Both the position numbers and the translations under genes were made by a program. The notes beneath the pieces are model-generated. The model saw nothing but the letters and a program-made list of their open reading frames with translations, was not told the origin of the DNA and ran no database searches. Of a stretch of DNA of 64,000 nt, positions 2,001 to 22,691 are shown piece by piece. The stretch is from positions 70,911 to 134,910 of the forward strand of contig JAYOYH010000006.1 in the NCBI GenBank assembly GCA_038153405.1, read 5' to 3'. Every line of letters starts with the position of its first letter. Position 1 is the first letter of the stretch. The DNA is from Gemmatimonadota bacterium (GTDB lineage Bacteria > Latescibacterota > UBA2968 > UBA8231).

Positions 2001-2002
2001 GG

Positions 2003-3382: not shown

Positions 3383-3397
3383 TGCGGTCTCTCGTCT

Positions 3398-4375: not shown

Positions 4376-4378
4376 CTC

Positions 4379-6011: not shown

Positions 6012-6013
6012 AA

Positions 6014-6544
6014 TTATCCCTTGAAATTCTTTCCGGCTTTGATTTTCTCGCCCAGTTTGAGCAGGGCGGCATAGAGCGCTTCGGGGCGCGGCGGACAGCC
6101 GGGAACGTAGACGTCGACCGGAACGATTCGGTCGGCTCCTTCGACGATGGCATACTGGCCTGGGTATTTGAACGGACCGCCATCAATGGTGCAGCCGCCC
6201 ATGGCAATGGCCCACTTGGGCGAGGGCATCTGATCCCAGAGCATCTTAATGGGGTCGGCCATTTTGCGCGAGATCGTACCGGCCAGGATCATGACGTCGG
6301 CCTGACGCGCGCTGGGGCGGAAGACGCCGGCGCCAATGCGGTCTAGGTCAAAGCGCGCCGCGCCGACAGCCATCATCTCGATGGCGCAGCAGGCCAAGCC
6401 AAAGGTCAGCGGCCACAGCGAACGTGCGCGCGCGTGGTTGAGCAGGTTTTCCAGCGAGTTGATGTGCACCAGAGGGCCGATTTGGCGTAGCAGTTCCTCG
6501 CTCTGTGCGTCGACTTTCTGGGGCGTCGTATCGGCAGGTACCAT
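6014..6544 (-). CDS. nuoB: NADH-quinone oxidoreductase-like subunit B
   Basis: GLACCAIEM and [15 protein letters not shown] (N2 cluster ligands). Confidence 0.97.
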
Positions 6545-6552
6545 ATAACTCC

Positions 6553-6921
6553 TTATTTCCAGTGCAGAACGCCTTTGCGCCAGGCATAGACGATGGCCAG
6601 CAAGAGGATGCCCACAAAGAGAGACAGCTCAATTAGATCGCGCCATACGTAGTCGCCCCGGTCAAAAACGAGCGCCACGGGCAAAATGTAGAGCACGTCT
6701 ACTTCAAAGGCGACGAAGATCAGTGCGAATAGGTAGTAGGCAATGTCGAAGCGGATCCAGGCGCTGCCGATGGTATCGACGCCGCACTCGTAGACCTCGC
6801 GGGTCTTATCGCCTCGAGAGCGCGGCGAGATAAAGAGCGGTAAGATGACGGGTATAGTGCCCAACACGAGGCCGGCAGCGAGCAGGCCACCAAAGAGCGC
6901 GTAGTTAGAAATGGGTTCCAT
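6553..6921 (-). CDS. nuoA: NADH-quinone oxidoreductase-like subunit A
   Basis: YECG loop, [24 protein letters not shown]. Confidence 0.96.
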
Positions 6922-6952: not shown

Positions 6953-6967
6953 GCAACCATAGTGCCC
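6953..6967 (-). promoter_or_regulatory. Putative sigma54 -24/-12 promoter of the nuo-like operon
   Basis: Minus strand GGGCAC-TATGG-TTGC (GG-N10-GC, one mismatch to TGGCAC-N5-TTGC), about 30 bp upstream of the nuoA start. Confidence 0.55.
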
Positions 6968-7172
6968 TGTGTCGTTTTTCCGCGGCACAACGATCTCGTG
7001 TTCTCTGCCAAAGAAAGGCATATTAACTAGGGTGTGGCAAGCCCTTTAACGATTTTGCGCGTGGGGGAATCGTGTCTCGCTGTGGTTTGAATTGGGGTCT
7101 ATTCGTCACAGTGTGCGTGCGAGAGAGGACACCAATTTATCTCTGAGTGCACTCTCGTAATAAAAAATGGAC

Positions 7173-7188
7173 TGGCATGTAGCTTGCA
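7173..7188 (+). promoter_or_regulatory. Putative sigma54 -24/-12 promoter of the sigma factor gene
   Basis: TGGCAT-GTAGC-TTGCA, about 30 bp upstream of ATG 7220. Confidence 0.7.
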
Positions 7189-7219
7189 GGAGGATGTAGG
7201 CGAGAGAGGAGGAATACAC

Positions 7220-8068
7220 ATGATTACTCAAACAAACGCTACAAATACAGCCGATGGTCTGCAGGCCTATTGGCGCGATATCAGCCGCTGCGAGCCGCTG
7301 AGTCGAGTGGAGGAAGCGCAGTTGGTGGAGAGGGCACATGCCGGCGACGACGAGGCGATGCAGGCGTTAGTGTCGGCCAACTTGCGCTTTGTCGTTCGAG
7401 TAGCACGCAATTATGCTCGTTCGGATATGCCGCTAGGTGAACTGATATCGGCGGGTAATTTGGGTCTGATGCGTGCAGTGCGTAATTTTGACGCCACGCG
7501 CGGCTACAAATTTATCACCTATGCCGTGTGGTGGATACGCCAGGCCATATGCAAGGCGATGGACGGTATGGTGCGCGACGTGCGGCGCCCGTCAAACCAG
7601 CTACTCGATATGAAGCACGTCGAGAGCGCGACGCGCAGGCTTGAACAGCAGCTGGGTCGCGTTCCAAGCATCGATGAGCTCGCAAAAGAGACGGGCTATA
7701 TGAGCGACCGGATGCGCAACGCAATTCAGTCGGGCTGGGGTGAAGTGCCACTCGATAATCCCTCAGGGGGCGACCAGCAGGACCCCCAACTCGATCTGCT
7801 ACCCGACCCGAGCGACTCTATTGAAGAAGAGCACGAGCGCCGCGAATTGCACGTGCTCCTGCACGAGTCGATGGCGGCGCTGAGCCCGCGCGAGCGGCGC
7901 GTGTTGGATGCCTATTACGGCCTTGGCGGCGCCGCAGAGATCAGCTTGGAAAGGATCGGAATTAGCCTGGGGCTTACGCGTGAACGGGTTCGTCAAATTC
8001 GCGATCGCGCGTTGCAAAAGATACGCATGCGACAGGGCGCGCGGTTGGTAGAATATTGCCGTAAATAG
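7220..8068 (+). CDS. RNA polymerase sigma70-family factor (RpoD/RpoS-like, lacks region 1.1)
   Basis: LVSANLRFVVRVA, GNLGLMRAVRNFD..RGYKFITYAVWWIRQAI (region 2), SLERIG..LGLTRERVRQI (region 4); AGGAGG RBS before ATG 7220. Confidence 0.93.
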   Translation: MITQTNATNTADGLQAYWRDISRCEPLSRVEEAQLVERAHAGDDEAMQALVSANLRFVVRVARNYARSDMPLGELISAGNLGLMRAVRNFDATRGYKFITYAVWWIRQAICKAMDGMVRDVRRPSNQLLDMKHVESATRRLEQQLGRVPSIDELAKETGYMSDRMRNAIQSGWGEVPLDNPSGGDQQDPQLDLLPDPSDSIEEEHERRELHVLLHESMAALSPRERRVLDAYYGLGGAAEISLERIGISLGLTRERVRQIRDRALQKIRMRQGARLVEYCRK

Positions 8069-8084
8069 AGGGAATGGGCGATTC

Positions 8085-8113
8085 TTGTCGCACCTGTAGA
8101 AATACAATATACT
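8085..8113 (+). promoter_or_regulatory. Putative sigma70 promoter of pckA
   Basis: TTGTCG-N17-TATACT. Confidence 0.55.
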
Positions 8114-8177
8114 ATGCTCACGCGGCGGGAGAGCTGTCCTCCCGCCGTTTTCCGTTCAGCATTCGAAGAGAGAAGCG

Positions 8178-9761
8178 ATGGAAGAGTGCATAGATCTCAG
8201 CGAACATCAGATATATGTAGAGCGCGCGTGGCGGAATATCGCACCGGCCAAGCTCTACGAAGAAGGGCTGCGCTATGAGAGGGGGTCGGCCATTTCCAAT
8301 GCCGGCGCTCTCGTAGTGTCTTCCGGCGCTAAAACTGGCCGCAGTCCCGGAGATAAGCGCATTGTCGACCATCCCGATACCAGTGGAGATATTTGGTGGG
8401 GATCGGTCAACATCAAGCTGCAAGAGCACACGTTCAGGATTAATCACGAGCGCGCGATAGATTACCTCAACACCTGTGAGCGCCTCTATGTGGTGGACGG
8501 CTTTGCCGGCTGGGATCCCAAGTATCGCCTGAAGATACGCATCGTCTGTTCGAGAGCCTACCACGCCCTCTTTATGCACAATATGCTCATTCGTCCGACG
8601 CCCGATGAACTGGCCGATTTTGGCGAGCCGGACTTCATCATCTACAATGCCGGGCGTTTTCCGGCTAATCGCTATACTTCGGAAATGACGTCAACGACGA
8701 GTATTGACCTGAGCTTTGAGCGCCGCGAAATGGTCATTCTCGGCACGGAGTACGCCGGGGAAATGAAGAAGGGCATCTTCACGGTGATGAACTACCTGAT
8801 GCCCAAGCGCGGGCAGCTTTCCATGCACTGCTCGGCCAATCGCAGCGCAGCGGGCGACGTGGCGCTCTTTTTCGGCCTGTCGGGCACGGGCAAGACCACC
8901 CTATCGGCCGACCCGCGTCGCCAGCTAATTGGCGATGACGAACACGTGTGGAGCGATGAGGGCATCTTCAATATAGAAGGTGGGTGCTACGCCAAATGCA
9001 TTGACCTGTCTGCGCAGAAAGAGCCCGAAATCTATCAGGCCATTCGCTTTGGCTCGGTGCTAGAAAACGTCGTCTACGATGAGCAGTCGCGATCCGTCGA
9101 CTATGCCGATGGATCGCTGACGGAGAATACGCGTGCGGCATATCCCATAGACTATATCCCCAATGCGGCCATTCCCTGCGTCGGCGAACATCCGCGCAAT
9201 ATCATTTTTCTCACCTGCGATGCCTTTGGCGTGCTGCCGCCGGTAAGCCGCCTGAGTGCAGCGCAGGCGATGTATCACTTTATCAGCGGCTATACCGCGA
9301 AAGTCGCCGGCACGGAGATGGGCGTTACCGAACCTGAGGCGACGTTTTCGGCCTGCTTTGGCGCCGCCTTTATGGTGTGGCATCCAAGCGTGTACGCCGA
9401 GCTTTTGGCAGAGAAGATTCGCCGACACGAGGTGCGCGTTTGGATGGTCAATACGGGCTGGACGGCAGGTGGCTACGGCGTTGGGCAGCGCATTGCACTA
9501 GCGCACACGCGCGCCATTATCGATGCCATTCACGACGGCGCGCTCGACGGCGCCGAGACCGCGCGCGATGCGCGCTTTGGCTTTGAGGTCATTGCCGCGT
9601 GCCCGGGGGTTCCATCGCAGGTGCTCGTGCCGCACGCGGCGTGGTCCGATCGTTCGGCCTACGAAGAGAAAGCTGCTCAGCTGGCGGCTCTGTTCAAGAA
9701 AAACTTCGAAAAATTCGCCGCGCAAACCGGTGGGGATATCGCGGAGGCCGGGCCGGTGTAG
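8178..9761 (+). CDS. pckA: Phosphoenolpyruvate carboxykinase (ATP)
   Basis: [38 protein letters not shown]. Confidence 0.97.
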
Positions 9762-9783
9762 CGGCGCGGCGAATGCGCAATGC

Positions 9784-9825
9784 AAAGAGGGGTTCGGCCT
9801 GCACCTGCGCCGAACCCCTCTTTTT
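9784..9825. terminator. Bidirectional rho-independent terminator
   Basis: AAAGAGGGGTTCGGC...GCCGAACCCCTCTTTTT between convergent genes. Confidence 0.85.
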
Positions 9826-9831
9826 GTCAGT

Positions 9832-10416
9832 TCACTTTTTCAGCCAGGGCAGCGAGCCCTCTACTACGCCTTTGCGCATATTGTTTAACCAGATCGGCCA
9901 AAACCAGCCGGTGTCGCTACCGGCCGGAAGCAGCGTCGGGTCGATCGGATATTTCTTGCCGCGCTCGATATCGGCGTTCAGATAGCTGGCAATCGCGGAA
10001 TAGGGTATCCAAGCGAAGGTGCTGCGCTCGTCAAAGGCGTCGCTTTCTTCCGGTGCCGGATTGTTCATCACGCGCTGTGCGGGAACGAAGTCAACCTGAG
10101 CAAAGTAGGTGGCATACGAGCCGTCCATCAGCGGCTTCTGTCCCTTGGCTTTGGCCTCTAAGTCGGTGCGAGCAAAATAACCGCGGGTTTCTTCGTGCGT
10201 CTTGTGCGCCGCCGTTTGCAGCATCGTCTCTCCCTCGCGGTCACCGCCGCCGAAAGCGGCCCAGCCGCGCTGGCTGCCGGCGTGTTCGGCCAGCAGCAGG
10301 TAGACTTCGCCGCCGGACTCGAAGTAAAGAACCATGCCGGCGGGCGACTCGGCCGTGGCCGAATCGCGTGCGAATAGAGCCATGCCGATGGCGAAGAGCA
10401 CGTGTTTTATGTTCAT
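9832..10416 (-). CDS. Exported NUDIX-family hydrolase (variant Nudix box)
   Basis: Start MNIKHVLFAIGMALFA (signal-like); WAAFGGGDREGETMLQTAAHKTHEETRG resembles G-x5-E-x7-REUxEExG. Confidence 0.7.
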   Translation of the reverse strand: MNIKHVLFAIGMALFARDSATAESPAGMVLYFESGGEVYLLLAEHAGSQRGWAAFGGGDREGETMLQTAAHKTHEETRGYFARTDLEAKAKGQKPLMDGSYATYFAQVDFVPAQRVMNNPAPEESDAFDERSTFAWIPYSAIASYLNADIERGKKYPIDPTLLPAGSDTGWFWPIWLNNMRKGVVEGSLPWLKK

Positions 10417-10474
10417 GAAAACCTCGCTGTTTGAAGTGGTCGTGGACGTGGAATGGAAAGCGGCGGTTGCGGGT

Positions 10475-11584
10475 CTAGGTCGCCGCTTCCGCGCTGGTCG
10501 ACTCGGCGTTTTCCAGCGGCGGGTTATAGCCCAGGCTGTAAAACTCGAGCAGGGCGACAAAGAGGGCCGCTAGCACGGGGCCAATGATAAAGCCCATCAT
10601 GCCAAAGACGCTCAGGCCGCCTAGAGTGGAGAAGAACACTAGCAGGTCGTGCATGCCGGTATCGCGTCCGACTAGGTAGGGGCGCAGTATATTGTCGACG
10701 CTGCTGATGATGAATGCCGTGATGAGCACGATGGCAATGCCCGACCAAAGGTTGCCGCTGAGCATTTCAAAGATGCCCGCCGGGTAGAGCACCATCCACG
10801 TTCCGACAAGTGGGATGATGGATAAGATGACCATGACGACGCCCCACAGTGCCGGAGAACTAAAGCCAAAGGCCCACAGGGTCAAACCGCCCAGCGTTCC
10901 CTGAATGAGGCCGATAAAGAGCGTGCCCTTTATCGTGGCGCGCGAGACCGAAGCAAAGCGTTCAATGAGGCCGCGTTCGTAGCGCGGGTCGAGGGGGCTC
11001 AACTCGTGCAGGCGGCGCAGCAGCAGCGGGCCGTCGCGAAAAAAGTAGAACATGGTGAAGAGCGTTATGAAGAAATTGGCCACCAACTGCAGCGTGCTGC
11101 GCGACGTCGTGTTGATAAAGCTGGTCGCCCAGCCGGCCGTCGTTTTGAGAGCCTCCTGTATGGATTGTTGCCAGTCGAGGTGGTTTAAGTTGAGGCGGCG
11201 CAGCAGCTCAAACTGGTCCAGCTTTTCTTGTAGGTTGATGCCGCTGCCGCCGCTGAGAAAACTCGTCGTCCACCGCCCAGCGGATTTGTATATGTTGAGG
11301 GATTCCTGCAGTACTAAATTGGTGACGACGTACGCGGGTACCAGTAAGCCCAGTAGGAGCGCAATACAGCAGATCAGGGCGCTGAGGCCGTCGCGACCGC
11401 GCGTCCAGTGCCGCAGCTTGGCGTAGAGGGGATAGAATAGGCCGGCAAAGGTGGCGGCCAATACCACGGGGACCAGAAAGAGCTTTGTCATCTCAAAGAG
11501 CACCACGCCGGTGCCCACCAGCAGTGCGAGCAGAAAATAGCCTCTGGTTTTTTGCGAATTCCTGTCGGGGACGTGCGTGCTCAC
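10475..11584 (-). CDS. AI-2E family transporter (UPF0118)
   Basis: Multi-TM; IIPLVG, VDNILRPYLVG, STLGGLSVFGMMGFIIGPV. Confidence 0.9.
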   Translation of the reverse strand: MSTHVPDRNSQKTRGYFLLALLVGTGVVLFEMTKLFLVPVVLAATFAGLFYPLYAKLRHWTRGRDGLSALICCIALLLGLLVPAYVVTNLVLQESLNIYKSAGRWTTSFLSGGSGINLQEKLDQFELLRRLNLNHLDWQQSIQEALKTTAGWATSFINTTSRSTLQLVANFFITLFTMFYFFRDGPLLLRRLHELSPLDPRYERGLIERFASVSRATIKGTLFIGLIQGTLGGLTLWAFGFSSPALWGVVMVILSIIPLVGTWMVLYPAGIFEMLSGNLWSGIAIVLITAFIISSVDNILRPYLVGRDTGMHDLLVFFSTLGGLSVFGMMGFIIGPVLAALFVALLEFYSLGYNPPLENAESTSAEAAT

Positions 11585-11731
11585 GATAAGCCGTTTGGGT
11601 TAGACCTGCTCTTGCCGCGCCGATTTAGCGCGGTGGCCTTGAGGTCTACATCTGTAGTTTAGTCCTCGCGGTGCATGATGGCAATGCCGGCCGGTCTCCG
11701 TTGGAGATGTCTGGGCCGCTGTGCGGTTCCC

Positions 11732-12325
11732 TCATATGGCCATTGCCGCCACCTGTGCAACAATATGCTTGAGGACATCCATGGGGCCTTGGCCGGCGTC
11801 GACGGTGAAGATGAGGTCGCTAGAATAGTATTCGAGGACGGGTGCGGTTTCGCGCTCGTACTCGTCAAAGCGCCGGCGAATAACCGCTTCGTTGGTGTCG
11901 TCGAGTCTGTTGTCGTGTAGCGCGCGCCGGTTAAGGCGGGCTATCATCGTTTCCTGGTCGTGCGTCTCCAAATGGATGAGTCGTTTGACATTGATGTATG
12001 CGCGCATGAGCTCGGCCTGCGCGACGTTGCGCGGAATGCCGTCGAGGACTAGCACTTCGCGCTCCGGCGAAAAATCACCGGCGTCGACTAGGCGACGCGC
12101 GTGCGCCTGCCAGAGTCGCACTGTCAGGTCGTCGGGCACCAACTGCCCGTGGCTGGAATACTGCAAAAACGTGCGTCCCAGTTCGCTTTCCGGGCGCAAA
12201 GCTCGAAATACATCGCCGCAGGACAGGTGAAAAAATCCCGGCACCTGGCCGAGTATTTTGCCCTGTGTGCCCTTGCCCGAACCGGGGGCGCCGAAGAGTA
12301 AGATGGTGCGAAATCGGGTATCCAT
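11732..12325 (-). CDS. adk: Adenylate/nucleoside monophosphate kinase (short LID)
   Basis: LLFGAPGSGKGTQ, GQLVPDD, LVLDGIPR, RLDD. Confidence 0.88.
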   Translation of the reverse strand: MDTRFRTILLFGAPGSGKGTQGKILGQVPGFFHLSCGDVFRALRPESELGRTFLQYSSHGQLVPDDLTVRLWQAHARRLVDAGDFSPEREVLVLDGIPRNVAQAELMRAYINVKRLIHLETHDQETMIARLNRRALHDNRLDDTNEAVIRRRFDEYERETAPVLEYYSSDLIFTVDAGQGPMDVLKHIVAQVAAMAI

Positions 12326-12725
12326 ATGCGTCCTGTGCCCAAGGTGGAAGGCCCTAACTTAGGCATTTTGCGCCGTCGTGGGAACAGGCGCTGCGATAGG
12401 GAAACTCTTTGGAGCCGGTAGTCGGCGGCGGTCCCATGCGATCGGCTGCAGGCCAAGCCAGCGTATGGCGGCACACCGTCGACCGGGTGTCTGATTGTCG
12501 GCGGTGCGTTGTCCTTGGCTGGGATAAAGGCGATTATGGGGTTTTCAGGAAGGGCATGCATTCATTTATTATGTGGGTCGCGGTGCCAACCCCAATGGGA
12601 CGAAGAATCTCGCTTTTTGCGCAATTATGCACTATGCTTGGGTAGTTGGCGACTGCGCAGTACTGTGTAGGTCAAGATTTGGCGCGCCGAGCGCCGGTTG
12701 TGGTAGTAGGTAAAAAAGGAGAGAC

Positions 12726-14144
12726 ATGGAATATCCGCAGATCATACAGGGCGGCATGGGTATCGGCGTGTCGAATTGGAACCTGGCTAAGCACGTTTCG
12801 CAACAGGGACAGTTGGGCGTTGTCTCGGGTACCTCGCTCGACAATGTATGCGCTCGACGCCTGCAGCAGGGTGACCCCGGAGGAAACGTGCGCCGTGCTA
12901 TGCAGCACTTTCCCTTTCCAGACGTTGCCCAGCGCGTCTTGGATCGCTACTACATCGAGGGGGGTAAGGATGCGGATAAGCCATTTGCCATCGTGCCCAT
13001 GTTTACGGTAGAACCAGACCCCGCGCTGGTCGAATTGACGGTCGTGGCCAACTTCGTCGAGGTCTTTCTCGCCGGCGAAGGGCATGATGGTCAGGTGGGA
13101 ATCAACTACCTTGAGAAAATCCAGATGCCCAATGTCGTGTCGATTTTTGGTGCGATGCTGGCTGGGGTTGACTACGTCATAATGGGAGCGGGTATCCCGC
13201 GCGAAATTCCCGGTGTGTTGGACGCGCTGGCGCGCGGCGATGAGGCGCAACTCAAGCTCTCGGTCGACGGGCAGGGCGAAGACGTGTGGATGCGCTTTGA
13301 TCAGAGTGCATTTGGCATGAGAGCGGATGCACTCAAACGCCCTAAATTTCTCGCCATCATATCTTCTGTGACCCTTGGGCAGGCGCTGCTCAAGCGCGCC
13401 ACCGGAGAGATCAACGGCTTTGTTGTCGAACTGCCGGTGGCTGGCGGACACAACGCACCGCCGCGCGGCAAATTACAGTTGGACGAGGACGGCGAGCCGA
13501 TTTACGGCCCGCGCGACGAAGTCGATCTGGTGAAAATCGCCGAGTTGGGCAAGCCGTTTTGGGTTGCCGGCTCCTTTGCCTACCCGGGGCGGCTGCGCGA
13601 GGTGCTGGAAGTGGGTGGTCAGGGCATTCAGGTGGGCACGGCGTTCGCCTTCTGCGAAGAATCCGGCCTCGCCCCCGAGTTCCGCGCCGAAGCGCTGCGC
13701 CAGGTGCGCGCGGGCACGCTGGACGTGTTTACCGATCCCGTTGCTTCGCCGACGGGTTTCCCCTTCAAAGTGGTGCAGATGCCCGATACGCTAGCCGATC
13801 GCCAGTACTATGAAGACCGGCCACGCGTGTGCAATTTGGGTTATTTGCGCACGGTGTACCGACGCGAAGATGGCAGGATAGACTACCGCTGCGCCTCCGA
13901 ACCGGTGGCCAGTTATGTGAAAAAGGGTGGTTCCTGCGAAGATGCGGAGGGGCGCAAGTGTCTGTGCAATGCGCTAATGGCCAATATCGGCCTGCCGCAG
14001 CGCCGCCCCAGCGGCTATGTGGAAAAGCCACTATTTACGGCTGGAGACGATCTGCCTGCCGTCGTGCGCTTTCTCGGCAATGAGCGACAGAGCTATCACG
14101 CGTCCGACGTCATCCAATACCTCTTAGAACAAAACGCCGACTGA
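12726..14144 (+). CDS. Nitronate monooxygenase / 2-nitropropane dioxygenase-family flavoprotein
   Basis: PQIIQGGMGIGVS, VAGGHN, GIQVGTAF, SPTGFPF. Confidence 0.85.
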   Translation: MEYPQIIQGGMGIGVSNWNLAKHVSQQGQLGVVSGTSLDNVCARRLQQGDPGGNVRRAMQHFPFPDVAQRVLDRYYIEGGKDADKPFAIVPMFTVEPDPALVELTVVANFVEVFLAGEGHDGQVGINYLEKIQMPNVVSIFGAMLAGVDYVIMGAGIPREIPGVLDALARGDEAQLKLSVDGQGEDVWMRFDQSAFGMRADALKRPKFLAIISSVTLGQALLKRATGEINGFVVELPVAGGHNAPPRGKLQLDEDGEPIYGPRDEVDLVKIAELGKPFWVAGSFAYPGRLREVLEVGGQGIQVGTAFAFCEESGLAPEFRAEALRQVRAGTLDVFTDPVASPTGFPFKVVQMPDTLADRQYYEDRPRVCNLGYLRTVYRREDGRIDYRCASEPVASYVKKGGSCEDAEGRKCLCNALMANIGLPQRRPSGYVEKPLFTAGDDLPAVVRFLGNERQSYHASDVIQYLLEQNAD

Positions 14145-14160
14145 ACGCCGATTACCGCGC

Positions 14161-14196
14161 AAAAGAGCCCCGCACCGTTCGGTGCGGGGCTCTTTT
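14161..14196. terminator. Bidirectional rho-independent terminator
   Basis: AAAAGAGCCCCGCACC-GTTC-GGTGCGGGGCTCTTTT perfect hairpin between convergent genes. Confidence 0.9.
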
Positions 14197-14217
14197 ATTA
14201 TTGCGACAAGTAGCTGC

Positions 14218-14427
14218 TTATAGGGCTATGACGCCCTCGGCGGCCAAGCCCTTCTGGCCTTGGACGACGCTGAATTCCACTTTCTGTCCTTCGGACAGGG
14301 AGCGGAAACCCTCCGAGCGGATCGAGGAGTGGTGGACGAACACGTCGTCACCGCTCTCGCGCTGGATAAAGCCAAAGCCCTTGGCGTCGTTGAACCACTT
14401 GACGGTTCCGGTCTCGCGATCTGCCAT
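14218..14427 (-). CDS. Cold-shock protein (CspA family)
   Basis: [15 protein letters not shown] (RNP1), DVFVHHS (RNP2). Confidence 0.97.
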
Positions 14428-14885
14428 GGTAATTTTCCTTTCGACAGGTTTACGTGAGCTCAGAGCGTTTCGAACAGGAGAGAACGGCTGCTTCGGGCTT
14501 TACTGTAGGGAGCTACTTCGTAGGATTACTTCGGGAGTAAACTACATTCGGTAGGATACTACATTTGGGCCAGGCAGGAATCTACTGAATCCGAACGACT
14601 CTACCACGGTTTAAGCTTCTGCACGCATTGCAGAGGCATGTTACCTGCTAATATCATAAAAAACCATCCCCATAGCAAGCAATATCGAAAATTAGTGCGG
14701 AGACGGTCTGGTAGACGATGGTCCGGCAGATGCCGAAGTGCGCCACGCCTGCCGCAAGGGCAAGGGATATCATGCGTGACTGCCACAGCCCATTGAGACA
14801 TAAACATCTCGCTCACGACGGCCTGACGCGGGTCCTTCACGGCATTACGCAAACAATAAACGGCTGTTATTGACCAATCGGTGGG

Positions 14886-14901
14886 TGGCATTGCGTTTGC
14901 T
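14886..14901 (+). promoter_or_regulatory. Putative sigma54 -24/-12 promoter of the USP-PFOR-DHOD-like operon
   Basis: TGGCAT-TGCGT-TTGCT, about 45 bp upstream of ATG 14945. Confidence 0.7.
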
Positions 14902-14944
14902 ATCTACTCGGTGTTCGCAGCGCACTTATCTGAGGAGGCATTCC

Positions 14945-15406
14945 ATGATTCACGCGAAGAAGATTCTCATACCGACGGATCTGTCCGAGGAAGCGCGCCA
15001 CGTATTACCCTACGCCGTCGAATTTGCTCGTTCGTATGGGGCGAAGATTATACTGGTACACGTCGTCGATGCGCGTTGGGTTGGGCCAGTGGCCAGCGCG
15101 GAGTTCCCCGGGATGGTGGAAGACCAAATCGATAGCAGCAAGACGGCCGCCACACAGGTCATGGAGGAGATGCGCATCGAACTGGGCGACTTGGAGGTCG
15201 AGACGCAGGTGCTGATCGGGTCGCCGCACGTGGAGATCGTGCGCTATGCGCGCAGCGAAGACGTCGACTTAATCATTCTGGCCACGCACGGAAGAACGGG
15301 CTTGGCGCACGCGCTAATCGGCAGCGTCGCCGAGAAAGTTGTGCAAATGGCACCGTGCCCAGTGCTGACGCTCAAGCATCCGGAACACGAATTTGAGCTG
15401 TCCTAA
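14945..15406 (+). CDS. Universal stress protein (UspA family)
   Basis: KKILIPTDLS, DLIILATHGRTG..LIGSVAEKVV..APCPVL; GAGGAGG RBS. Confidence 0.95.
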   Translation: MIHAKKILIPTDLSEEARHVLPYAVEFARSYGAKIILVHVVDARWVGPVASAEFPGMVEDQIDSSKTAATQVMEEMRIELGDLEVETQVLIGSPHVEIVRYARSEDVDLIILATHGRTGLAHALIGSVAEKVVQMAPCPVLTLKHPEHEFELS

Positions 15407-15427
15407 AATAGCTCGGGAGGGGAACTC

Positions 15428-18400
15428 ATGCAGCGCAAGATGATTGCGGTAGACGGCAATGAGGCCGCGGCCTATGTCGCACATAAGGCGAGTGAAGTGA
15501 TCGCCATTTATCCGATAACTCCCTCTTCGCCTATGGGGGAACTGGCCGATGCGTGGTCGTCGTCTGGCCGGACCAATATCTGGGGGCAGGTGCCAACAGT
15601 CATCGAGATGCAAAGCGAGGGCGGCGCCGCCGGTGCGCTGCACGGTGCGCTGCAGGCCGGCGCGCTGGCGACGACCTTTACCGCCTCACAGGGTCTGCTG
15701 CTGATGATTCCCAATATGTATAAGATCGCCGGTGAATTGACGCCCTTTGCCATGCACGTGGCCGCTCGTTCGTTGGCTGCGCAGGGCTTGTCGATTTTCT
15801 GCGATCACAGCGATGTCATGGCGGTGCGCCAGACGGGGTTTGCTATGCTCGCTTCGTCCTCGGTCCAGGAGGCTATGGACATGGCGCTCATCGCCCATGC
15901 AGCAGCGCTCGAAGCGCGCCTGCCTTTCCTGCATTTTTTTGACGGCTTTCGCACCTCGCACGAGGTGGCTAAGATCGAGGCGCTGTCCGATGAGGATATA
16001 CGCGCGCTGATCGATGACGAGTGGGTGCGCGCACATCGCGCGCGCGCGCTGAGTCCCGACCATCCAATGATGCACGGCACGGCGCAAAACCCGGATATCT
16101 ACTTTCAGGGACGCGAAACGGTCAACCCGTTTTACGAACGGGTGCCGGCTGTCGTCCAACGCCTCCTCGATCGGTTGGGCCAGCGCGTCGGCCGTCGTTA
16201 CCGGCTGTTCGAATACGCTGGTGCAGCCGACGCCGAGCGCGTTATTGTGCTGATGGGTTCCGGTTCCGAGGCCGCACTTGAAACGGTTGAGGCAATGCGA
16301 GCTGCCGGGGAAAAAGTAGGCGTGCTACGCGTACGCCTCTATCGCCCCTTTTCCGCCGAGCACTTTCTGCAGGCCCTCCCCGCCAGCGTGAAACGCCTCG
16401 CCGTGCTCGATCGAACAAAAGAGCCCGGTTCGCTCGGCGAGCCGCTGATGCTCGACGTGCTAGCCGCGGTCGACGTGGGCGACCGTGCGCTGCAGGTGTG
16501 CGGCGGCCGCTATGGATTGGGATCCAAGGAGTTTACTCCTGCCATGGTCAAAGGGGTGTTCGATGAATTGGCCAAAAGCGCGCCGCGCAAGCGCTTTACC
16601 GTTGGCATCGACGACGATGTGTGCGGCACCAGCATCGAATACGACCCCTCGTTTAGCACGGAGAAAAGATCGGTGATGCGCGCCGTGTTTTACGGGTTGG
16701 GATCAGACGGCACGGTCGGAGCCAACAAGAACTCGATCAAGATCATCGGCGAAGAGACGGATAATTTCGCACAGGGCTACTTTGAATACGATTCGAAAAA
16801 ATCAGGGGCGATGACGATTTCGCACCTGCGCTTTGGTCTCGAACCTATCCACTCGACCTACCTAATCGAACGGGCTAATTTTGTCGCCTGTCATCAGGCC
16901 GTATTTCTCGACCGCTTTGACGTGCTGGAAAAGGCCGAAGAAGGGGCGACATTCCTGCTCAATACGGCGGCGCAACGGGACGAGGTGTGGGACAGCCTGC
17001 CCCGTATAGCGCAGGAGCGCATTATTCAGCGCAAGATCAAACTCTATGCCATCGACGCGCACGCGGTGGCCAGCCAGGCGGGTATGGGCGGGCGGATAAA
17101 TACGGTCATGCAGACCTGTTTCTTTGCCCTTGCGGGCGTTTTGCCGCGCGACAGGGCGATTGCTTCGATCAAAGATGCCATCGGCAAGACATACGGCAAG
17201 CGCGGCGAGGAAATCGTCGTGCGCAACTGCGCGGCCGTGGACCGCGCGCTGGAAAATCTGCACTGCATCAAAGTGCCCGCGCAGGTGACCAGCAAGATCG
17301 AATTGGAAAGGATTGTCCCAGACAGCGCGCCCGATTTTGTGCGCGAGGTAACGTCGGTCATGATGGAGCGCCGGGGGGATTCGTTGCCTGTGAGCCTGAT
17401 ACCGATCGACGGCGCGTTTCCAACGGATACGGCCCGCTGGGAGCGGCGCAATATAGCCCAAGAAATACCGGTATGGGATTCCGATACGTGCATTCAGTGC
17501 AATAAGTGTGCGCTGGTCTGTCCGCACGGTGCCATCCGCGCCAAGATCGTGGAAGAGAGCGATCTTGTCGGTGCGCCGGCGGGGTTTATGACGGTGCCCC
17601 TGCGCGGTCGCGGTTTCCCCGATGGCGCCCATTACGCTCTGCAGGTAGCGCCTGAGGACTGCACCGGCTGTGCACTGTGCGTAGAAGTGTGTCCGGCCAA
17701 GAATCGGCAGGAATCGCGTCTCAAGGCGATTAATATGCAGGACCAGACCGCGCTGCGCGAAGGCGAGCGGGCCAACTGGACGTTCTTCCGCGCGCTGCCG
17801 GAATACGACCGCCGCAAACTCAAAGTAGGGCAGGTCAAGGAGTCGCAGTTCCTGCAGCCGCTCTTCGAGTTTTCTGGCGCCTGCTCAGGCTGCGGCGAGA
17901 CGCCCTACGTCAAGCTGATCAGCCAGCTCTTTGGCGATCGCTCGGTTGTGGCCAATGCCACCGGATGCTCGTCGATTTACGGCGGCAATCTGCCGACGAC
18001 GCCGTGGGCCAAAGACGCGGCCGGGCGCGGCACTGCCTGGTCGAATTCGCTCTTTGAAGACAATGCCGAATTTGGGTTGGGCATGCGCTTGGCCATCGAT
18101 AGCCACAAGGCACGGGCCATTGCATTGCTCCACGACGTTGGGGAGTGCATTGGCGCACAGCGGATCGAAGCGCTTATCGGCGCCGACCAGAGCGACGAGG
18201 CGGGCATCTACGCACAGCGACAGCGTGTGGCCGATCTAAAGGCGATGTTGGCCGAGGTGCCGGGTGATTCGGCAAGGCAATTGATCGAATTAGCCGACTA
18301 TTTGGTGAAGAAAGATGTGTGGATTATGGGCGGCGACGGCTGGGCCTACGACATTGGCTTTGGTGGACTCGATCACGTTCTCGCATCGGGTGCCGACGTC

Positions 18401-18961
18401 AATGTTTTAGTAATGGACACGGAAGTATACTCCAATACCGGCGGACAGATGTCCAAGGCGACGCCGCGCGCCGCAGTGGCCAAATTTGCCGCCGGCGGCA
18501 AGCGCGAGCGCAAAAAAGATTTGGCGCGCTTTGCCATGGGCTACGGCAACGTATACGTCGCCAGCATCGCCATGGGCGCTTCCGACGCACAGGCCGTACG
18601 CGCGATCGTCGAAGCCGAAGCCTATGTCGGTCCCTCGCTGGTCATCGCCTATTCGCACTGCATTGCGCACGGCATCAATATGCGATTGGGGATGGAGCAG
18701 CAGAAGGCCGCCGTCGACTCGGCCTACTGGCCGCTGTTCCGCTACCATCCGGCGCGGGGGTTTTCTCTGGACTCGAAAGAAGCGAAGATTCCATTCAAGG
18801 AGTATGCAATGAAAGAGGCGCGCTATGCCATGCTGGCGCGCGGCAAACCACAGGAGGCCGAGCAGCAGCTGCGCCGGGCCCAGCAGGACGTCGATGAGCG
18901 CTGGGCGTACTACAGTCAGTTGGTCGAGTCCAATGACTTGGGGCAGCAGGCGGCAGGTTGA
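15428..18961 (+). CDS. nifJ: Pyruvate:ferredoxin (flavodoxin) oxidoreductase, single-chain
   Basis: YPITPS, EMQSEGGAAG, two 4Fe-4S motifs (CIQCNKCALVCP, CTGCALCVEVCP), GGDGWAYDIG TPP motif. Confidence 0.97.
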   Translation: MQRKMIAVDGNEAAAYVAHKASEVIAIYPITPSSPMGELADAWSSSGRTNIWGQVPTVIEMQSEGGAAGALHGALQAGALATTFTASQGLLLMIPNMYKIAGELTPFAMHVAARSLAAQGLSIFCDHSDVMAVRQTGFAMLASSSVQEAMDMALIAHAAALEARLPFLHFFDGFRTSHEVAKIEALSDEDIRALIDDEWVRAHRARALSPDHPMMHGTAQNPDIYFQGRETVNPFYERVPAVVQRLLDRLGQRVGRRYRLFEYAGAADAERVIVLMGSGSEAALETVEAMRAAGEKVGVLRVRLYRPFSAEHFLQALPASVKRLAVLDRTKEPGSLGEPLMLDVLAAVDVGDRALQVCGGRYGLGSKEFTPAMVKGVFDELAKSAPRKRFTVGIDDDVCGTSIEYDPSFSTEKRSVMRAVFYGLGSDGTVGANKNSIKIIGEETDNFAQGYFEYDSKKSGAMTISHLRFGLEPIHSTYLIERANFVACHQAVFLDRFDVLEKAEEGATFLLNTAAQRDEVWDSLPRIAQERIIQRKIKLYAIDAHAVASQAGMGGRINTVMQTCFFALAGVLPRDRAIASIKDAIGKTYGKRGEEIVVRNCAAVDRALENLHCIKVPAQVTSKIELERIVPDSAPDFVREVTSVMMERRGDSLPVSLIPIDGAFPTDTARWERRNIAQEIPVWDSDTCIQCNKCALVCPHGAIRAKIVEESDLVGAPAGFMTVPLRGRGFPDGAHYALQVAPEDCTGCALCVEVCPAKNRQESRLKAINMQDQTALREGERANWTFFRALPEYDRRKLKVGQVKESQFLQPLFEFSGACSGCGETPYVKLISQLFGDRSVVANATGCSSIYGGNLPTTPWAKDAAGRGTAWSNSLFEDNAEFGLGMRLAIDSHKARAIALLHDVGECIGAQRIEALIGADQSDEAGIYAQRQRVADLKAMLAEVPGDSARQLIELADYLVKKDVWIMGGDGWAYDIGFGGLDHVLASGADVNVLVMDTEVYSNTGGQMSKATPRAAVAKFAAGGKRERKKDLARFAMGYGNVYVASIAMGASDAQAVRAIVEAEAYVGPSLVIAYSHCIAHGINMRLGMEQQKAAVDSAYWPLFRYHPARGFSLDSKEAKIPFKEYAMKEARYAMLARGKPQEAEQQLRRAQQDVDERWAYYSQLVESNDLGQQAAG

Positions 18962-18971
18962 GGAGGCGATA

Positions 18972-19961
18972 ATGGACCTGAGAGCGAATTACATGGGCTT
19001 AGAGTTGAAAAATCCGCTGGTAGTGTCGGCTTGTCCGCTATCGCGCGACGTGGACAATGTGCGGCGGATGGAAGATGCCGGTGCCGCAGCCGTGGTGATG
19101 TTCTCTCTATTTGAAGAGGAGATTCGCCACGAGATGCTGGAACTGGATCACTTTCTCGACTACGGCACGCACAGTTTTGCCGAAGCGCTGGACTACTTTC
19201 CCGAGCACGAGCAGTACGACGTTGGTCCACACGCTTATTTGGAGCACGTGCGGGCGCTGCGCGCTGCAGTAGACATTCCCATCATAGGCAGTCTGAACGG
19301 CGTGGCAGTTGGAGGCTGGGTAGAATATGCGCGCTTAATAGAGGACGCCGGGGCCGATGCGCTGGAATTAAATATCTACCACATTCCTACCGAAATTGAA
19401 CAGTGCGGTGAAGACATCGAACAACTGCATCTGGATATACTGCGCTCCGTTAAAGATTGCCTAAATATTCCCATCGCGGTGAAGCTGAGTCCATTTTTTA
19501 GCTCGATGGCCCATATGGCACGCCAGTTCGACTGGGCCGGGGCCGATGCGCTCGTTCTGTTCAACCGCTTTTACCAGCCCGATATCGACCTCGATTCGCT
19601 CGAAGTCGTGCCGAGCGTCAAACTCAGCACCTCGCATTCGATGCGTCTGCCGCTGCGTTGGATTGCTATTTTGAGCGGTCGCGTGCGCTGCGACTTGGCT
19701 GCTAGCAGCGGCATTCACTCGGCGCGCGATGTGCTCAAAATGGTGATGGCTGGCGCCGACGTGGCGATGATGGCTTCGGCACTATTGCGCAATGGTATCG
19801 ATCATATCGCCCACGTATTGGGCGATATGAGGACGTGGATGGAGGAAAGGGAGTACGCATCGCTGGGCCAGATACGGGGTAGTATGAGCCACGCCAAATA
19901 CGCCGACCCAACGGCATTTGAACGGGCCAATTACATCAAGGCGCTCAACACCTACGCGTGA
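18972..19961 (+). CDS. Dihydroorotate dehydrogenase-like FMN protein (PFOR-associated type)
   Basis: YMGLELKNPLVVSA, GADALELNIY, PIAVKLSP, LVLFNRFYQPD; AGGAGG RBS right after the nifJ stop. Confidence 0.88.
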   Translation: MDLRANYMGLELKNPLVVSACPLSRDVDNVRRMEDAGAAAVVMFSLFEEEIRHEMLELDHFLDYGTHSFAEALDYFPEHEQYDVGPHAYLEHVRALRAAVDIPIIGSLNGVAVGGWVEYARLIEDAGADALELNIYHIPTEIEQCGEDIEQLHLDILRSVKDCLNIPIAVKLSPFFSSMAHMARQFDWAGADALVLFNRFYQPDIDLDSLEVVPSVKLSTSHSMRLPLRWIAILSGRVRCDLAASSGIHSARDVLKMVMAGADVAMMASALLRNGIDHIAHVLGDMRTWMEEREYASLGQIRGSMSHAKYADPTAFERANYIKALNTYA

Positions 19962-20010
19962 GCGCGGCTGCAGTCTGCAGGGCATAGCGTGGCCAGCCTC
20001 GTGCCGTGTG

Positions 20011-20481
20011 CTATACCCTCGCCCGGCGCGTGTTGTCCACCAGCTGTTGGCGCGTAGCCTCTAGGCGCTGGGTGGTGATCTGCACCAGGCGGCGCAGCAG
20101 TTCATAGCCCATGTCTGGATGGGCATCGCACAGGGCGCGCAGCGCTTCGGCTTCTAGTGCAACGGTCCGCGTGTCTTCCACGGCGCGGGCGTCAAAGCGC
20201 CATCGGTAGGGTGGGACCATCCACGACCAGCCGAGAATCTCATCGGGGTCAACGGCCTGAACTGGAATGCCTCCGGTCTCTAGTGCGACGCGCCCGTGAA
20301 AAATCAAAAAGAAATGCTCGGCCCGCTCACCCTGGCGCCCCAAATAGGCGTCGCCGGCATAGACTTTGTCTTCTGCGCATGAGGCTAGTAAGTGTAAATG
20401 AGCCTTGTCCATGCCGCGGAAAAAATGGTGTTCCCCTATGGCATTGGTGAATTGCTGTACTCGATCGCTATTCATGTCCAT
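20011..20481 (-). CDS. Stand-alone cyclic nucleotide-binding (CRP effector) domain protein
   Basis: QGERAEHFFLIFHGRV, EILGWSWMVPPYRWRFDARA; no HTH. Confidence 0.85.
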   Translation of the reverse strand: MDMNSDRVQQFTNAIGEHHFFRGMDKAHLHLLASCAEDKVYAGDAYLGRQGERAEHFFLIFHGRVALETGGIPVQAVDPDEILGWSWMVPPYRWRFDARAVEDTRTVALEAEALRALCDAHPDMGYELLRRLVQITTQRLEATRQQLVDNTRRARV

Positions 20482-20551
20482 TCCTCTCTTCCTCAGTGAG
20501 CTATACGGGCAAAGCGCTTGTGTCCGTGGAGATCGCAGCAGGTGTTTTTCA

Positions 20552-20600
20552 GAGACGTGGCAGTCCCAAAGAAAAGCCTATCGAGACCTAGCAGTCCCAA
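20552..20600 (+). repeat. Tandem imperfect dyads GAGAC-N3-GCAGTCCCAA, 31-bp period
   Basis: GAGACGTGGCAGTCCCAA (20552) and GAGACCTAGCAGTCCCAA (20583). Confidence 0.7.
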
Positions 20601-20650
20601 GGATAGCGCGGAAATACGCATAACCGACCTCTATGGCATGGGTAGGGCTA

Positions 20651-20665
20651 TGGCACAGTTTTTGC
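20651..20665 (+). promoter_or_regulatory. Putative sigma54 -24/-12 promoter of the thioredoxin gene
   Basis: TGGCAC-AGTTT-TTGC, perfect core consensus, about 35 bp upstream of ATG 20702. Confidence 0.75.
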
Positions 20666-20701
20666 CGACTTCTCGTTGAATATAGAGGGGAGGTTAGGGC
20701 T

Positions 20702-21037
20702 ATGACAGGGTTGATCGAAGAATTGTGCAGAGTAGATGATGTGATGGAGAAGGACGCAGAGGTGGAAGGGAGAGGGGTTTGCCTGATCGATTTTTGCGCC
20801 TCTTGGTGCGACGTCTGTCAGGTGACGTGGACGTTGAGCGAAGCGCTTGCTGATCATTACGGTCGGCATCTGACGCTGTGCCACGTCGATGTCGACGACC
20901 ACCCCGAACTAGCGGCGCGCTATCGGGTGCATACCGTGCCGACGCTCATACTGCTGAAAGACGGCGAGATGGTAGAACACTTTGCCGGCGTTACGACGAG
21001 GGAGCGCATCTGCGCGGCGGTCGAGCGGGCGATGTAG
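20702..21037 (+). CDS. Thioredoxin-family protein (WCDVC)
   Basis: LIDFCASWCDVC, VDVDDHPELAARYRVHTVPTL; GGGGAGG RBS. Confidence 0.88.
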   Translation: MTGLIEELCRVDDVMEKDAEVEGRGVCLIDFCASWCDVCQVTWTLSEALADHYGRHLTLCHVDVDDHPELAARYRVHTVPTLILLKDGEMVEHFAGVTTRERICAAVERAM

Positions 21038-21077: not shown

Positions 21078-22691
21078 TTAGGGCGCACCCCCCTTGCTCG
21101 TAGAGAGCGCATTTTTGACCTGGTCGAGTAGGTCGGTGACGGCCAATGGCTTTTGCAAGACCGGTATTTGTGCCGATCGCACCTGTGCCCAATCGGTTTT
21201 TTCATCCATGTAGCCGGTCACCAGTAGCATGGGCAGGTCGGCGTGTTCGCGCCGCAGTTCCAGCAGCCATTCGGATCCGCGCCCATCGGGTAGAAATACG
21301 TCGCTCAGCAGCAGGTCAAAGCGCCCGTCTTCGCGGCGGAACAGCGCGCGTGCGTCGCGCAGCGTCGCGCAGGCAAAGACTTCGTAGCCCTGGTCGCGCA
21401 GCACGCGCAGGGAGCGATCGCGCAGGTCGGGTTCGTCTTCCAACAGCAGCACGCGCTCTCCACGCGCGCGTGCGCGCGCGTGGAGAATAGGCGCCAACTC
21501 GCGCTGTCGGGCATCGGTAGCTTCGCCGTGAACGGGAAAGTAGAGCGAGAATGTGCTGCCCTGTCCCGCTTCGCTAACCAACTCGATCCACCCCTCGTGT
21601 GCTTCGATAATGCCGTAGACGACCGACAGACCGAGTCCCGTTCCCTTGTCGACGTCTTTGGTGGTAAAGAAGGGTTCGAAAATGCGTTGGCGCACAGACT
21701 CGTCCATGCCCGAACCGGTATCGCAGATCTGCAGACGCACAAAGCGCCCAGGGCGGGCCTGCGAGTGGTGGCGACAGTGCTCCGCATCAATTTCCACATT
21801 GGCGGTAATCAGACGCAGCGAACCGCCTTCGGGCATGGCATCGCGGCTGTTTATGGATAGGTTGAGGATGACCTGGTCGATATTGCCGGGGTCGGCATTA
21901 ATCGTCCACAGGTTGTCACCCAGGTCCATCTGTATGGTAATGTGCTCGCCGAGCAGGCGGTCGAGCATCTTCTGCAGCTCATTTACCTGGCCGTTTAAAT
22001 TTAAGATCTGGCGTTCGATTTGCTGGCGGCGACTAAAGAGCAGCAGCTGGCGCGTAAGGTTGGCTGCGCGCAGCACGACCTTGCGAATTTTGAGCAGATC
22101 CTCGCGCAGATTCTCCTCTTCGTGCGCGGCCAGCATCATATCCACGTCGAATAGCATAATGCCGAGCTGGTTGTTGAAATCGTGGGCGATGCCGCCGGCC
22201 AGTTGGCCGACCGACTCCATTTTTTGCGACTGGACGAGCTGGGCCTCCAGCTGCTTGCGCTCGGTGATGTCGCGGACGATACCAGTAAACATGCGCCGCT
22301 TGCCCAGTTGGAACTGACTGACGGCCAAGTCGAGCGGAAACGTAGTGCCGTCCTTGCGTTTTCCCGTGACCTCGCGGCCTATGCCGATGATCTTTGCATG
22401 TCCGGTGTTCAAATAGTTCGCTATGTAGCGGTCGTGTTCGTCGGTGTAGGGGGATGGCATGAGGATCGATACGTTGCTGCCGATCACCTCGTTTGCGGCA
22501 TAGCCAAAGATCGTCTCTGCGGCGCGATTAAACGACTCTATACGGCCGTGCTCGTCGATGGTTATGATGCCGTCGACGACGTTTTCCAGCGCCGATTGGT
22601 AGCGCCGTGCGTCCTCGCACTGCTGCAGTTGCAGGCGCAGTCCCCGTAGCTCTTCGATGAGCTGCTTTTTGTTCTTTCTTTCGTCTTGCAT
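21078..22691 (-). CDS. Hybrid sensor histidine kinase with FixL-like PAS and receiver domain
   Basis: PAS MPSPYTDEHDRYI..KIIGIGREVTGKRKDG; H-box GIAHDFNN; FEPFFTTK..GTGLGL; receiver LLLSDVFLPD. Confidence 0.93.
   Translation of the reverse strand: MQDERKNKKQLIEELRGLRLQLQQCEDARRYQSALENVVDGIITIDEHGRIESFNRAAETIFGYAANEVIGSNVSILMPSPYTDEHDRYIANYLNTGHAKIIGIGREVTGKRKDGTTFPLDLAVSQFQLGKRRMFTGIVRDITERKQLEAQLVQSQKMESVGQLAGGIAHDFNNQLGIMLFDVDMMLAAHEEENLREDLLKIRKVVLRAANLTRQLLLFSRRQQIERQILNLNGQVNELQKMLDRLLGEHITIQMDLGDNLWTINADPGNIDQVILNLSINSRDAMPEGGSLRLITANVEIDAEHCRHHSQARPGRFVRLQICDTGSGMDESVRQRIFEPFFTTKDVDKGTGLGLSVVYGIIEAHEGWIELVSEAGQGSTFSLYFPVHGEATDARQRELAPILHARARARGERVLLLEDEPDLRDRSLRVLRDQGYEVFACATLRDARALFRREDGRFDLLLSDVFLPDGRGSEWLLELRREHADLPMLLVTGYMDEKTDWAQVRSAQIPVLQKPLAVTDLLDQVKNALSTSKGGAP

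Follow-up and report, generated by a model that had tools for sequence, protein, structure and literature searches.

A predicted FixL-type oxygen sensor wired to a low-oxygen sigma54 regulon through an NtrC-type activator in Latescibacterota

Introduction

The closest described counterparts of the regulatory system considered here are NmpRSTU of Myxococcus xanthus and the rhizobial FixL-FixJ(-FixK) pathway. In the part of its description that was available (PMC11841059), NmpRSTU combines a heme O2 sensor, a hybrid kinase, an NtrC-like activator, tandem dyad enhancers, sigma54 boxes and autoregulation, and its targets include a universal stress protein (USP), HemN and a P-type ATPase/cbb3 oxidase operon. 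Similar features were found around a 64,000-nt stretch of Latescibacterota DNA (the window; positions 70911-134910 of contig C6 of the 4.86-Mb source genome, G000) and in related genomes. On the whole we consider it probable that a FixL-like O2 sensor in this organism drives a sigma54 low-oxygen regulon through an NtrC-type bacterial enhancer-binding protein (bEBP) and a shared palindrome, TGnGAC-N6-GTCnCA. NmpRSTU differs, as far as the same part of the source describes it, in that its sensor is a protoglobin kinase, NmpU, which acts through a relay of several steps, and in that its site is GCGCA-N5-TGCGC, whereas here a FixL-type heme-PAS domain lies in one hybrid kinase; furthermore, pyruvate:ferredoxin oxidoreductase (PFOR), thioredoxin and a sigma factor are predicted targets here, unlike in that description. 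The bEBP-linked kinase has a PAS domain, and the sole protoglobin among 70 box-linked proteins is on an MCP, although no whole-genome search for a protoglobin kinase was made. The predicted circuit works like NmpRSTU, but its sensor type and binding site place it outside that system.

FixL-FixJ(-FixK) resembles the present system in its low-oxygen outputs (hemN, cbb3 assembly) and in near-identical heme-PAS motifs, in which the positions of the proximal His and the distal Arg are kept. FixJ belongs to the LuxR/NarL type of regulators and acts on sigma70 promoters. The kinase described here differs from FixL in having a CckA-like core and a C-terminal REC domain, and its predicted partner is a sigma54 bEBP. 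It scored 229.7 against the FixL equivalog NF041777, the cut-off of which is 850. As judged from sequence, the kinase carries a FixL sensor domain but the system is not FixLJ. A sigma54-driven sigma70-family factor is known from the Rrp2-RpoN-RpoS cascade of Borrelia; the sigma factor found here differs in falling below the RpoS cut-off. In the NtrY/NtrX system of Brucella, a heme-PAS kinase is paired with an NtrC-family regulator, but NtrX lacks the GAFTGA motif and is not a sigma54 activator. The FlrB/FlrC pair of Vibrio, in which FlrB has an atypical PAS domain, reportedly controls flagella.

Broad sigma54 regulons comparable to that of G000 have been described. In Desulfovibrio vulgaris, many bEBP sub-regulons (flagella, nitrogen uptake, pyruvate metabolism, non-coding RNAs) stand under one sigma54; according to the accessible part of that report, however, the pyruvate targets are pyruvate formate-lyase operons and the regulators are single-component (PMC4641369). 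The sigma54 regulomes of Planctomycetota and Bacteroidota are likewise broad and place chaperones under sigma54, and the accessible portion of this 2025 survey mentions neither Latescibacter nor Gemmatimonad (PMC12316311). PMC2725144, in the part available, does not mention NADH, pyruvate or thioredoxin. Our searches of the open-access literature yielded no description of a FixL-type kinase paired with a sigma54 activator, the supplements of PMC12316311 and PMC4641369 being places where comparable regulons may be listed, and none of sigma54 control in Latescibacterota.

Results

A first-pass annotation, made from the window alone, had proposed that RpoN co-activates a low-oxygen energy module from four -24/-12 boxes, which precede a sigma factor gene, a USP-PFOR-DHOD-like operon, a thioredoxin gene and a complex I-like nuo operon, while the interspersed pckA has a sigma70-type promoter. 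All four strings are present with the canonical 5-nt spacer. They lie 32 (sigma gene), 44 (usp), 36 (trx) and 31 nt (nuoA) from the start codons, within the 30-45 bp given there, and the identities of all these genes, pckA included, hold in domain searches. The expected rpoN and bEBP genes were also found: rpoN scored above cut-off in G000 and in 41/41 genomes searched, and 13 of the 17 PF00158 matches in G000 were strong. For these analyses 4021 genes were called in G000 (completeness 93%) with our own codon model, and G000 was compared with 125 genomes of the class, the relatives being labelled G001 and so on.

Three of the boxes are almost certainly real sigma54 promoters, to judge from their scores and conservation. 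They precede the sigma factor gene (7173..7188, plus strand; TGGCAT-N5-TTGCA; predicted +1 at ~7199), the usp-PFOR-DHOD-like operon (14886..14901, plus strand; TGGCAT-N5-TTGCT; predicted +1 at ~14912) and the thioredoxin gene (20651..20666, plus strand; TGGCAC-N5-TTGC at 20651-20665; predicted +1 at ~20677). In each of them GG (-24) and GC (-12) are 10 nt apart, and the box is intergenic, in the sense orientation and above chance. Genome-wide, 25 TGGCAY-Nk-TTGC strings that were intergenic, in sense and upstream of a gene occurred at k=5, compared with 0-3 at each of 11 other spacers, and 22/22 TGGCAY-N5-TTGCW sites were intergenic. A sigma54 matrix, for which 21 sites from elsewhere in the genome served as seed, was scored over 2366 upstream regions. 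The usp box reached 19.1 bits (rank 17), the trx box 18.4 bits (rank 19) and the sigma-gene box 16.9 bits (rank 22), whereas the nuoA box reached 6.4 bits (rank 106). True matches numbered 30 at >=14 bits, against 1-6 in spacer-shifted controls, and 83 at >=8 bits, against 30-45. By these ranks and controls the usp, trx and sigma-gene boxes are beyond chance and the nuoA box is within the chance range. Conservation in orthologues divided the four boxes in the same way. The sigma-gene box stands at -48 in G000, G001 and G005 alike; the usp box is conserved in G001, G005, G013 and 8 more genomes; the trx box scores 17.7 bits in G005, with weaker variants in G001 (TGGTAC) and G013 (TTGT).

A generic sigma70 scan returned 7 sites against 7.2 expected, and for this reason a genome-trained sigma70 matrix was used instead (3.4% of shuffles score >=8). 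With it, no sigma70 promoter was found upstream of the sigma gene (-5.5), usp (2.5) or trx (-6.9). The four available RNA runs consist of contigs (share <=0.09); the three that were examined gave neither start sites nor strands, and they were not used as support.

The gene behind the first promoter (7220..8068, plus strand) is a predicted target that encodes a 282-aa alternative sigma70-family factor with regions 2-4. Related sigma genes with an enhancer and a box adjoin the bEBP gene in G115 and G116. The idea that sigma54 drives many sigma70 paralogues was rejected, the box standing directly upstream of this one only among 10. The second promoter precedes an operon (14945..19961, plus strand) that, by domain and profile searches, encodes a USP (14945-15406), PFOR (15428-18961; TIGR02176) and a DHOD-like protein (18972-19961; PRK07565). 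The third precedes a gene for a thioredoxin-like protein (20702..21037, plus strand) with a WCDVC active-site motif; this atypical motif is kept in G001 and G005. Divergent from trx lies a gene for a cNMP-binding-domain protein (20011..20481, minus strand), a possible second user of the trx enhancer, whose own box scores 3.3 bits in G000, 11.7 in G005 and 13.4, with an enhancer pair, in G020 and G090.

Sharing sigma54 does not by itself show co-activation, because the regulon is broad and G000 has 13 strong bEBPs. About 30-40 sigma54 boxes were found genome-wide. Pfam searches of the 70 proteins at or near the ~30 top boxes identified flagellins, flgB, flgFG, fliOPQR, MCP, cheA and amtB-glnK, as well as groEL, groES, dnaK, hsp20, pspA and large secreted proteins. 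What supports the proposed co-activation is the palindrome TGnGAC-N6-GTCnCA, which alignments revealed in pairs upstream of all three sigma54 promoters. The sites, to which no strand is assigned, are at 7061..7111 for the sigma gene (7061-7080 and 7092-7111, 31 bp apart; pair score 14.6), at 14774..14812 for usp-PFOR (a weak site at 14774-14793 and a strong one at 14793-14812) and at 20550..20600 for trx (20550-20569 and 20581-20600, 31 bp apart; pair score 27.8). The sigma-gene pair is found at -159/-128 from the ATG in G000, G001 and G005, and the trx pair, the best-scoring in the genome, is conserved in G001, G005 and G013. When 264 boxes in G000 were scored with an enhancer matrix built from 28 sites of other genomes, the highest places went to trx, a PilZ-bEBP operon, a gene on contig C59, usp, the sigma gene and genes of contigs C26 and C22. 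Pair scores >=8 occurred at 6 of 40 strong boxes, three of them those of the sigma gene, usp and trx, compared with 2% of 391 background zones.

The palindrome signal is modest in G000 alone and strong across genomes. Among 43 perfect palindromes in 8 bEBP-carrying relatives, a box lay within 30-200 bp at >=11 bits in 9 and at >=7.5 bits in 15, whereas 1.4% and 4.3% of 1500 random positions had such boxes. In 5 genomes without the bEBP, 0/17 palindromes were box-linked (Fisher p 0.006 at 7.5 bits, these being kin genomes and not independent). Twelve bEBP neighbourhoods outside the training set (155 kb) held 26 sites against 1 for the reversed pattern, and 18 of the 26 were box-linked. Of the 12 genomes with PFOR, 11 show both an enhancer of >=13 bits and a box of >=15 bits before its operon; the exception, G016, has no enhancer and a box of 8.4 bits only. 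Ten of these 12 genomes carry the bEBP, and a HemN-like gene lies divergently upstream of PFOR in 6 genomes.

The bEBP in question (C6:66612-68042 of G000, ~3 kb left of the window) has the architecture REC-AAA+(GAFTGA)-HTH, with GAFTGA and D54 intact. It reaches no named NCBIfam cut-off. Among its 120 best relatives, most of which are unnamed, the few source-named entries are all labelled Latescibacterota or Gemmatimonadota and none Myxococcus. The gene is found in 27 of the 125 genomes. In G000 it follows a PilZ-domain gene, which is preceded by an enhancer pair of its own and by a box that is weak (8.4 bits) but conserved. The palindrome precedes the bEBP operon in G000 and at 7/9 orthologue loci (>=55% identity), the copy of G014 being located on a joining contig; none was found at the G013 bEBP locus or at the 11 distant bEBP loci (0/11). 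It is therefore quite likely that this bEBP reads the shared palindrome. In G033 and G034 (L232, L233), bEBP homologues of 49% identity adjoin FixL-like kinases, and a diverged dyad pair of the TGTAAC-N6-GTTGCA type, 22 bp apart, stands before a strong downstream box. This dyad is a possible co-evolved site.

The predicted sensor and partner of the bEBP is a hybrid histidine kinase encoded at 21078..22691 (minus strand), with a FixL-type heme-PAS domain, HisKA (H170), HATPase and REC (D464). The best structure matches of its PAS domain are FixL (E ~1e-34). His86 and Arg106 of the kinase align with the heme ligand and the distal O2-contact residue of FixL; both are kept in 9/12 relative matches and occur in no other PAS domain of G000, where this is the only FixL-type PAS. 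FixL-like PAS domains were found in 36 of the 125 genomes, namely in 25/27 genomes with the bEBP and 11/98 others. Coordinates place a FixL-like kinase within 5 kb of the bEBP in 17/27 genomes, and in G069 the kinase, the bEBP and the PFOR-DHOD-like operon are neighbours. Input of O2 through this kinase is fairly likely on this evidence. The co-activation and the low-oxygen signal of the first-pass annotation gained support from the heme-PAS kinase and the shared enhancer, but its complex I part did not.

That part concerns nuoABCDHIJKL (168..6921, minus strand), which continues with nuoMN to the left of the window. The complete operon, nuoABCDHIJKLMN without nuoEFG, has the composition of an 11-subunit complex I-like enzyme. 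The closest relatives of its nuoA are mostly labelled Candidatus Latescibacterota and the two nearest Gemmatimonadota. The weak box before nuoA, GGGCAC-N5-TTGC (6953..6967, minus strand), is probably a chance match or a decayed enhancer-type site. It reads GGCAC-N5-TTGT in G001, where it is conserved no better than its flanks, and is absent in G002 and G005. It aligns with an enhancer-type palindrome at -61 of nuoA in G005, where the pair to which this palindrome belongs (-92/-61) covers the sigma70 start predicted there, as the site of a repressor might; an unrelated sigma54 box of 22 bits stands 273 bp before nuoA in that genome. A box of >=10 bits within 500 nt of nuoA was found at 0/78 nuoA-related loci, and a box or enhancer before nuoA in 0/7 other bEBP genomes with upstream sequence, most of which are distant and have nuoA inside an operon. 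On the other hand, a sigma70-like element of nuoA (7013..7042, minus strand; TTGCCA -35 and an atypical -10) is conserved, scoring 8.3 bits in G000 and 8.1-10.9 in three relatives, and its TTGCC(A/T)CACCC block is kept in 4/4 same-genus genomes. This sigma70-type element serves nuoA better than the sigma54-like box does. Orthologues of nuoA occur in 40 of the 125 genomes and PFOR in 12, with both in 4. The nuo operon, which headed the annotated module, is probably not a sigma54 target and probably lies outside the regulon. Elsewhere in G000 (C13:41981-46395), a NuoF-like 568-aa gene and the genes around it look like a detached NADH/hydrogenase module, which may feed electrons into the 11-subunit complex.

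As proposed, pckA (8178-9761) has a sigma70 promoter, TTGTCG-17-TATACT (8085..8113, plus strand), and is not a sigma54 target; the genome-trained matrix gives it 12.6, and it is conserved in G001 (13.9) and G002 (13.6). In G002, nuoA adjoins pckA, the sigma gene is missing there, and close orthologues of usp, trx, PFOR and the bEBP are absent. A weak enhancer-type site (4.7 bits; 8074-8093) overlaps the pckA -35 and is kept in G001 and not in G002, which has no bEBP; repression of pckA through this site is possible. A GC-rich hairpin opens the pckA leader (8122-8148) in G000, G001 and G002.

Discussion

From these features the following circuit can be proposed. When O2 leaves the heme of the PAS domain, as its homology to FixL with ligand His and distal Arg suggests, the kinase would autophosphorylate at H170, and the phosphate would pass to D54 of the bEBP, either directly or by a relay through the REC domain; the pairing is suggested by gene adjacency in relatives. 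The bEBP would then oligomerise on paired palindromes (spacing 20 or ~31 bp) that stand 50-130 bp upstream of the box, and would open the sigma54 promoters of its own operon, of PFOR/DHOD-like/USP, trx and the sigma factor, and of a few small proteins. The sigma factor as a target would form a second tier of the cascade. In an organism whose oxidase is otherwise of the aa3 type, PFOR would allow pyruvate to be converted to acetyl-CoA by an oxygen-sensitive reaction that reduces ferredoxin. Sigma70-type polymerase would read the nuo operon and pckA, and the nuo complex could take electrons from PFOR, probably without being co-activated. Control is taken to be on at low O2 because PFOR, HemN-like and cbb3-related genes are among the targets: the 59 proteins of relatives chosen by proximity to enhancer sites include cbb3-type cytochrome c, a CcoI-type ATPase, FeoA, multiheme cytochromes, corrinoid proteins and YceI. 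A wider version, in which a FixL-type sensor wired to a sigma54 bEBP is a master hypoxia switch that also sets the nuo and pckA promoters via overlapping sites, is put forward tentatively. In that version, which is equally tentative, the switch would serve a class of Latescibacterota by inducing the oxidation of pyruvate through PFOR together with a downstream alternative sigma factor.

Several observations weigh against the proposed circuit, and some of them favour other explanations. The three promoters could be independent members of a broad sigma54 regulon with diverse targets, the palindrome being a chance match or the site of an unrelated regulator. An unbiased de novo palindrome search of the 40 strong G000 boxes did not return TGnGAC-N6-GTCnCA among its top results, and when mismatches were counted in G000, 8 box-linked matches were found at the 6-nt spacer and 9 at an 8-nt spacer control. 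Moreover, 28 of the 43 perfect palindromes in the eight relatives have no nearby box, the motif was first spotted in alignments of G000, G001 and G005, the G005 training sites are partly orthologous to those of the window, and the counts overstate independence because the genomes are kin. Nevertheless, the out-of-sample enrichment (26 sites against 1; 11/12 PFOR operons), the fixed geometry in orthologues and the dependence on the presence of the bEBP make independence of the three promoters very improbable. It is also conceivable, though rather improbable, that the enhancer and co-activation are real and the input is not O2 via this kinase, so that another kinase or a general redox or stress signal would act, or the kinase would be a phosphate sink. 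In G013 and G026 the kinases beside the bEBP are other, non-heme ones (in G013 a HAMP kinase); in G011 and G026, both of which have the bEBP and the palindromes, no FixL-like PAS was found. Being a hybrid, the kinase contains a REC domain itself, and NmpS/NmpU act as a phosphate sink; some of the targets, such as USP, thioredoxin, YceI and the corrinoid proteins, have general roles in stress or redox balance. In G000 the kinase and the bEBP are 24 kb apart, and beside its aa3-type oxidase no other heme-copper oxidase (cbb3) and no bd oxidase was found in this 93%-complete genome. G001 has lost PFOR by deletion, yet its usp gene, promoter and enhancer are intact (L033:700-1140, G001:C5); there usp is followed by a 66-codon DHOD-like remnant and then a cNMP gene fragment. 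FixLJ can also work the other way round: in R. palustris it represses nif when responding to O2, according to the part of PMC13327599 available. An O2 input is favoured by the co-occurrence of FixL-like PAS and bEBP in 25/27 genomes, their adjacency in 17/27, the uniqueness of this PAS in G000, and targets that point to low oxygen.

[quoted passage not shown] Tandem sigma70/sigma54 promoters are known from glnAp1/glnAp2 of E. coli. The distance to the pair is typical, the pair score is 14.8, and the box of the bEBP itself is similarly weak, yet conserved. TTGT variants stand at enhancer-linked boxes in G013 and G026, so that the TTGT change in G001 is not decisive, and G005 has the 22-bit box and the enhancer pair. 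In Desulfitobacterium, PFOR has been proposed as the electron donor to an 11-subunit complex I (PMC11238625, in the part available). Against this stand the chance-range score, the poor conservation in G001, the absence in G002 and G005 with homology to an enhancer-type site in the latter, the negative nuoA-related loci (0/78) and other bEBP genomes (0/7), the sharing of nuoA and PFOR by only 4 genomes, and the NuoF-like gene that may supply an NADH module. This full module is unlikely. A functional nuoA sigma54 promoter in G000, taken by itself, is given a small chance, because the sigma-gene enhancer pair is at a usable distance and weak boxes occur in the regulon.

If the proposed FixL-to-sigma54 circuit is correct, it would represent an architecture that our literature searches did not turn up, with a previously undescribed site, and would be a third way, next to FixLJ and NmpRSTU, in which O2 sensing by heme is coupled to transcription. 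It provides a complete, testable prediction (sensor, activator, site, promoters and targets) for an uncultured phylum, and all of its steps lend themselves to reconstitution in E. coli or in vitro. It also suggests that some Latescibacterota bearing an aa3 oxidase switch their metabolism at low oxygen, and the palindrome would be a usable marker for reading low-oxygen genes from Latescibacterota genomes.

Other features of the genome

The gene content from 168 to 22691 is, in order, nuoA-L (minus strand), the 282-aa sigma70-family factor, pckA, NUDIX, AI-2E, adk, NMO-like, cold-shock, usp-PFOR-DHOD-like, cNMP-domain, thioredoxin-like and the PAS hybrid kinase. An Rfam search of positions 1-30000 of the window gave zero matches. 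The cold-shock gene (14218-14427, minus strand) has a leader (14430-14625) that is nearly invariant between G000 and G001 and has no Rfam match; contigs related to it are present in three RNA libraries.

Because the chaperone boxes (those of groEL, groES, dnaK, hsp20 and pspA) lack the enhancer, the idea that they form one group with the boxes of the sigma gene, usp and trx was rejected. The chaperone boxes stand at C15:47385, C3:145272, C2:113804, C86:9146 and C33:27886 before groEL, groES-groEL, dnaK, hsp20 and pspA, respectively, and form a separate predicted sigma54 heat-shock sub-regulon. GGAAA-N3-TTTCC-like dyads head the de novo palindrome list of the 40 strong boxes.

Strong boxes also precede unannotated small open reading frames at C26:13135 (plus strand, 38 aa), C59:1378 (minus strand, 32 aa), C36:36446 (plus strand, 40 aa) and C22:40542 (plus strand, 76 aa). 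Two of the peptides, those of C26 and C59, are hydrophobic paralogues, and C26, C59 and C22 also carry the enhancer. Other strong boxes have no convincing open reading frame (C13:48373, minus strand, and C61:15744, plus strand, in G000; L035:14735, plus strand, and 14704, minus strand, in G005). Terminator-like hairpins lie within ~100 nt after the C13 box and the G005 plus-strand box, which makes these two boxes candidate promoters of sigma54-dependent small RNAs.

Besides TTG-N20-TAT promoters, the pattern TTG-N(19-21)-TAnnTTTG is enriched genome-wide in G000 (17, 16 and 10 occurrences, against 0-4 at other spacings), and it resembles the -33/-7 promoter of Bacteroidetes.

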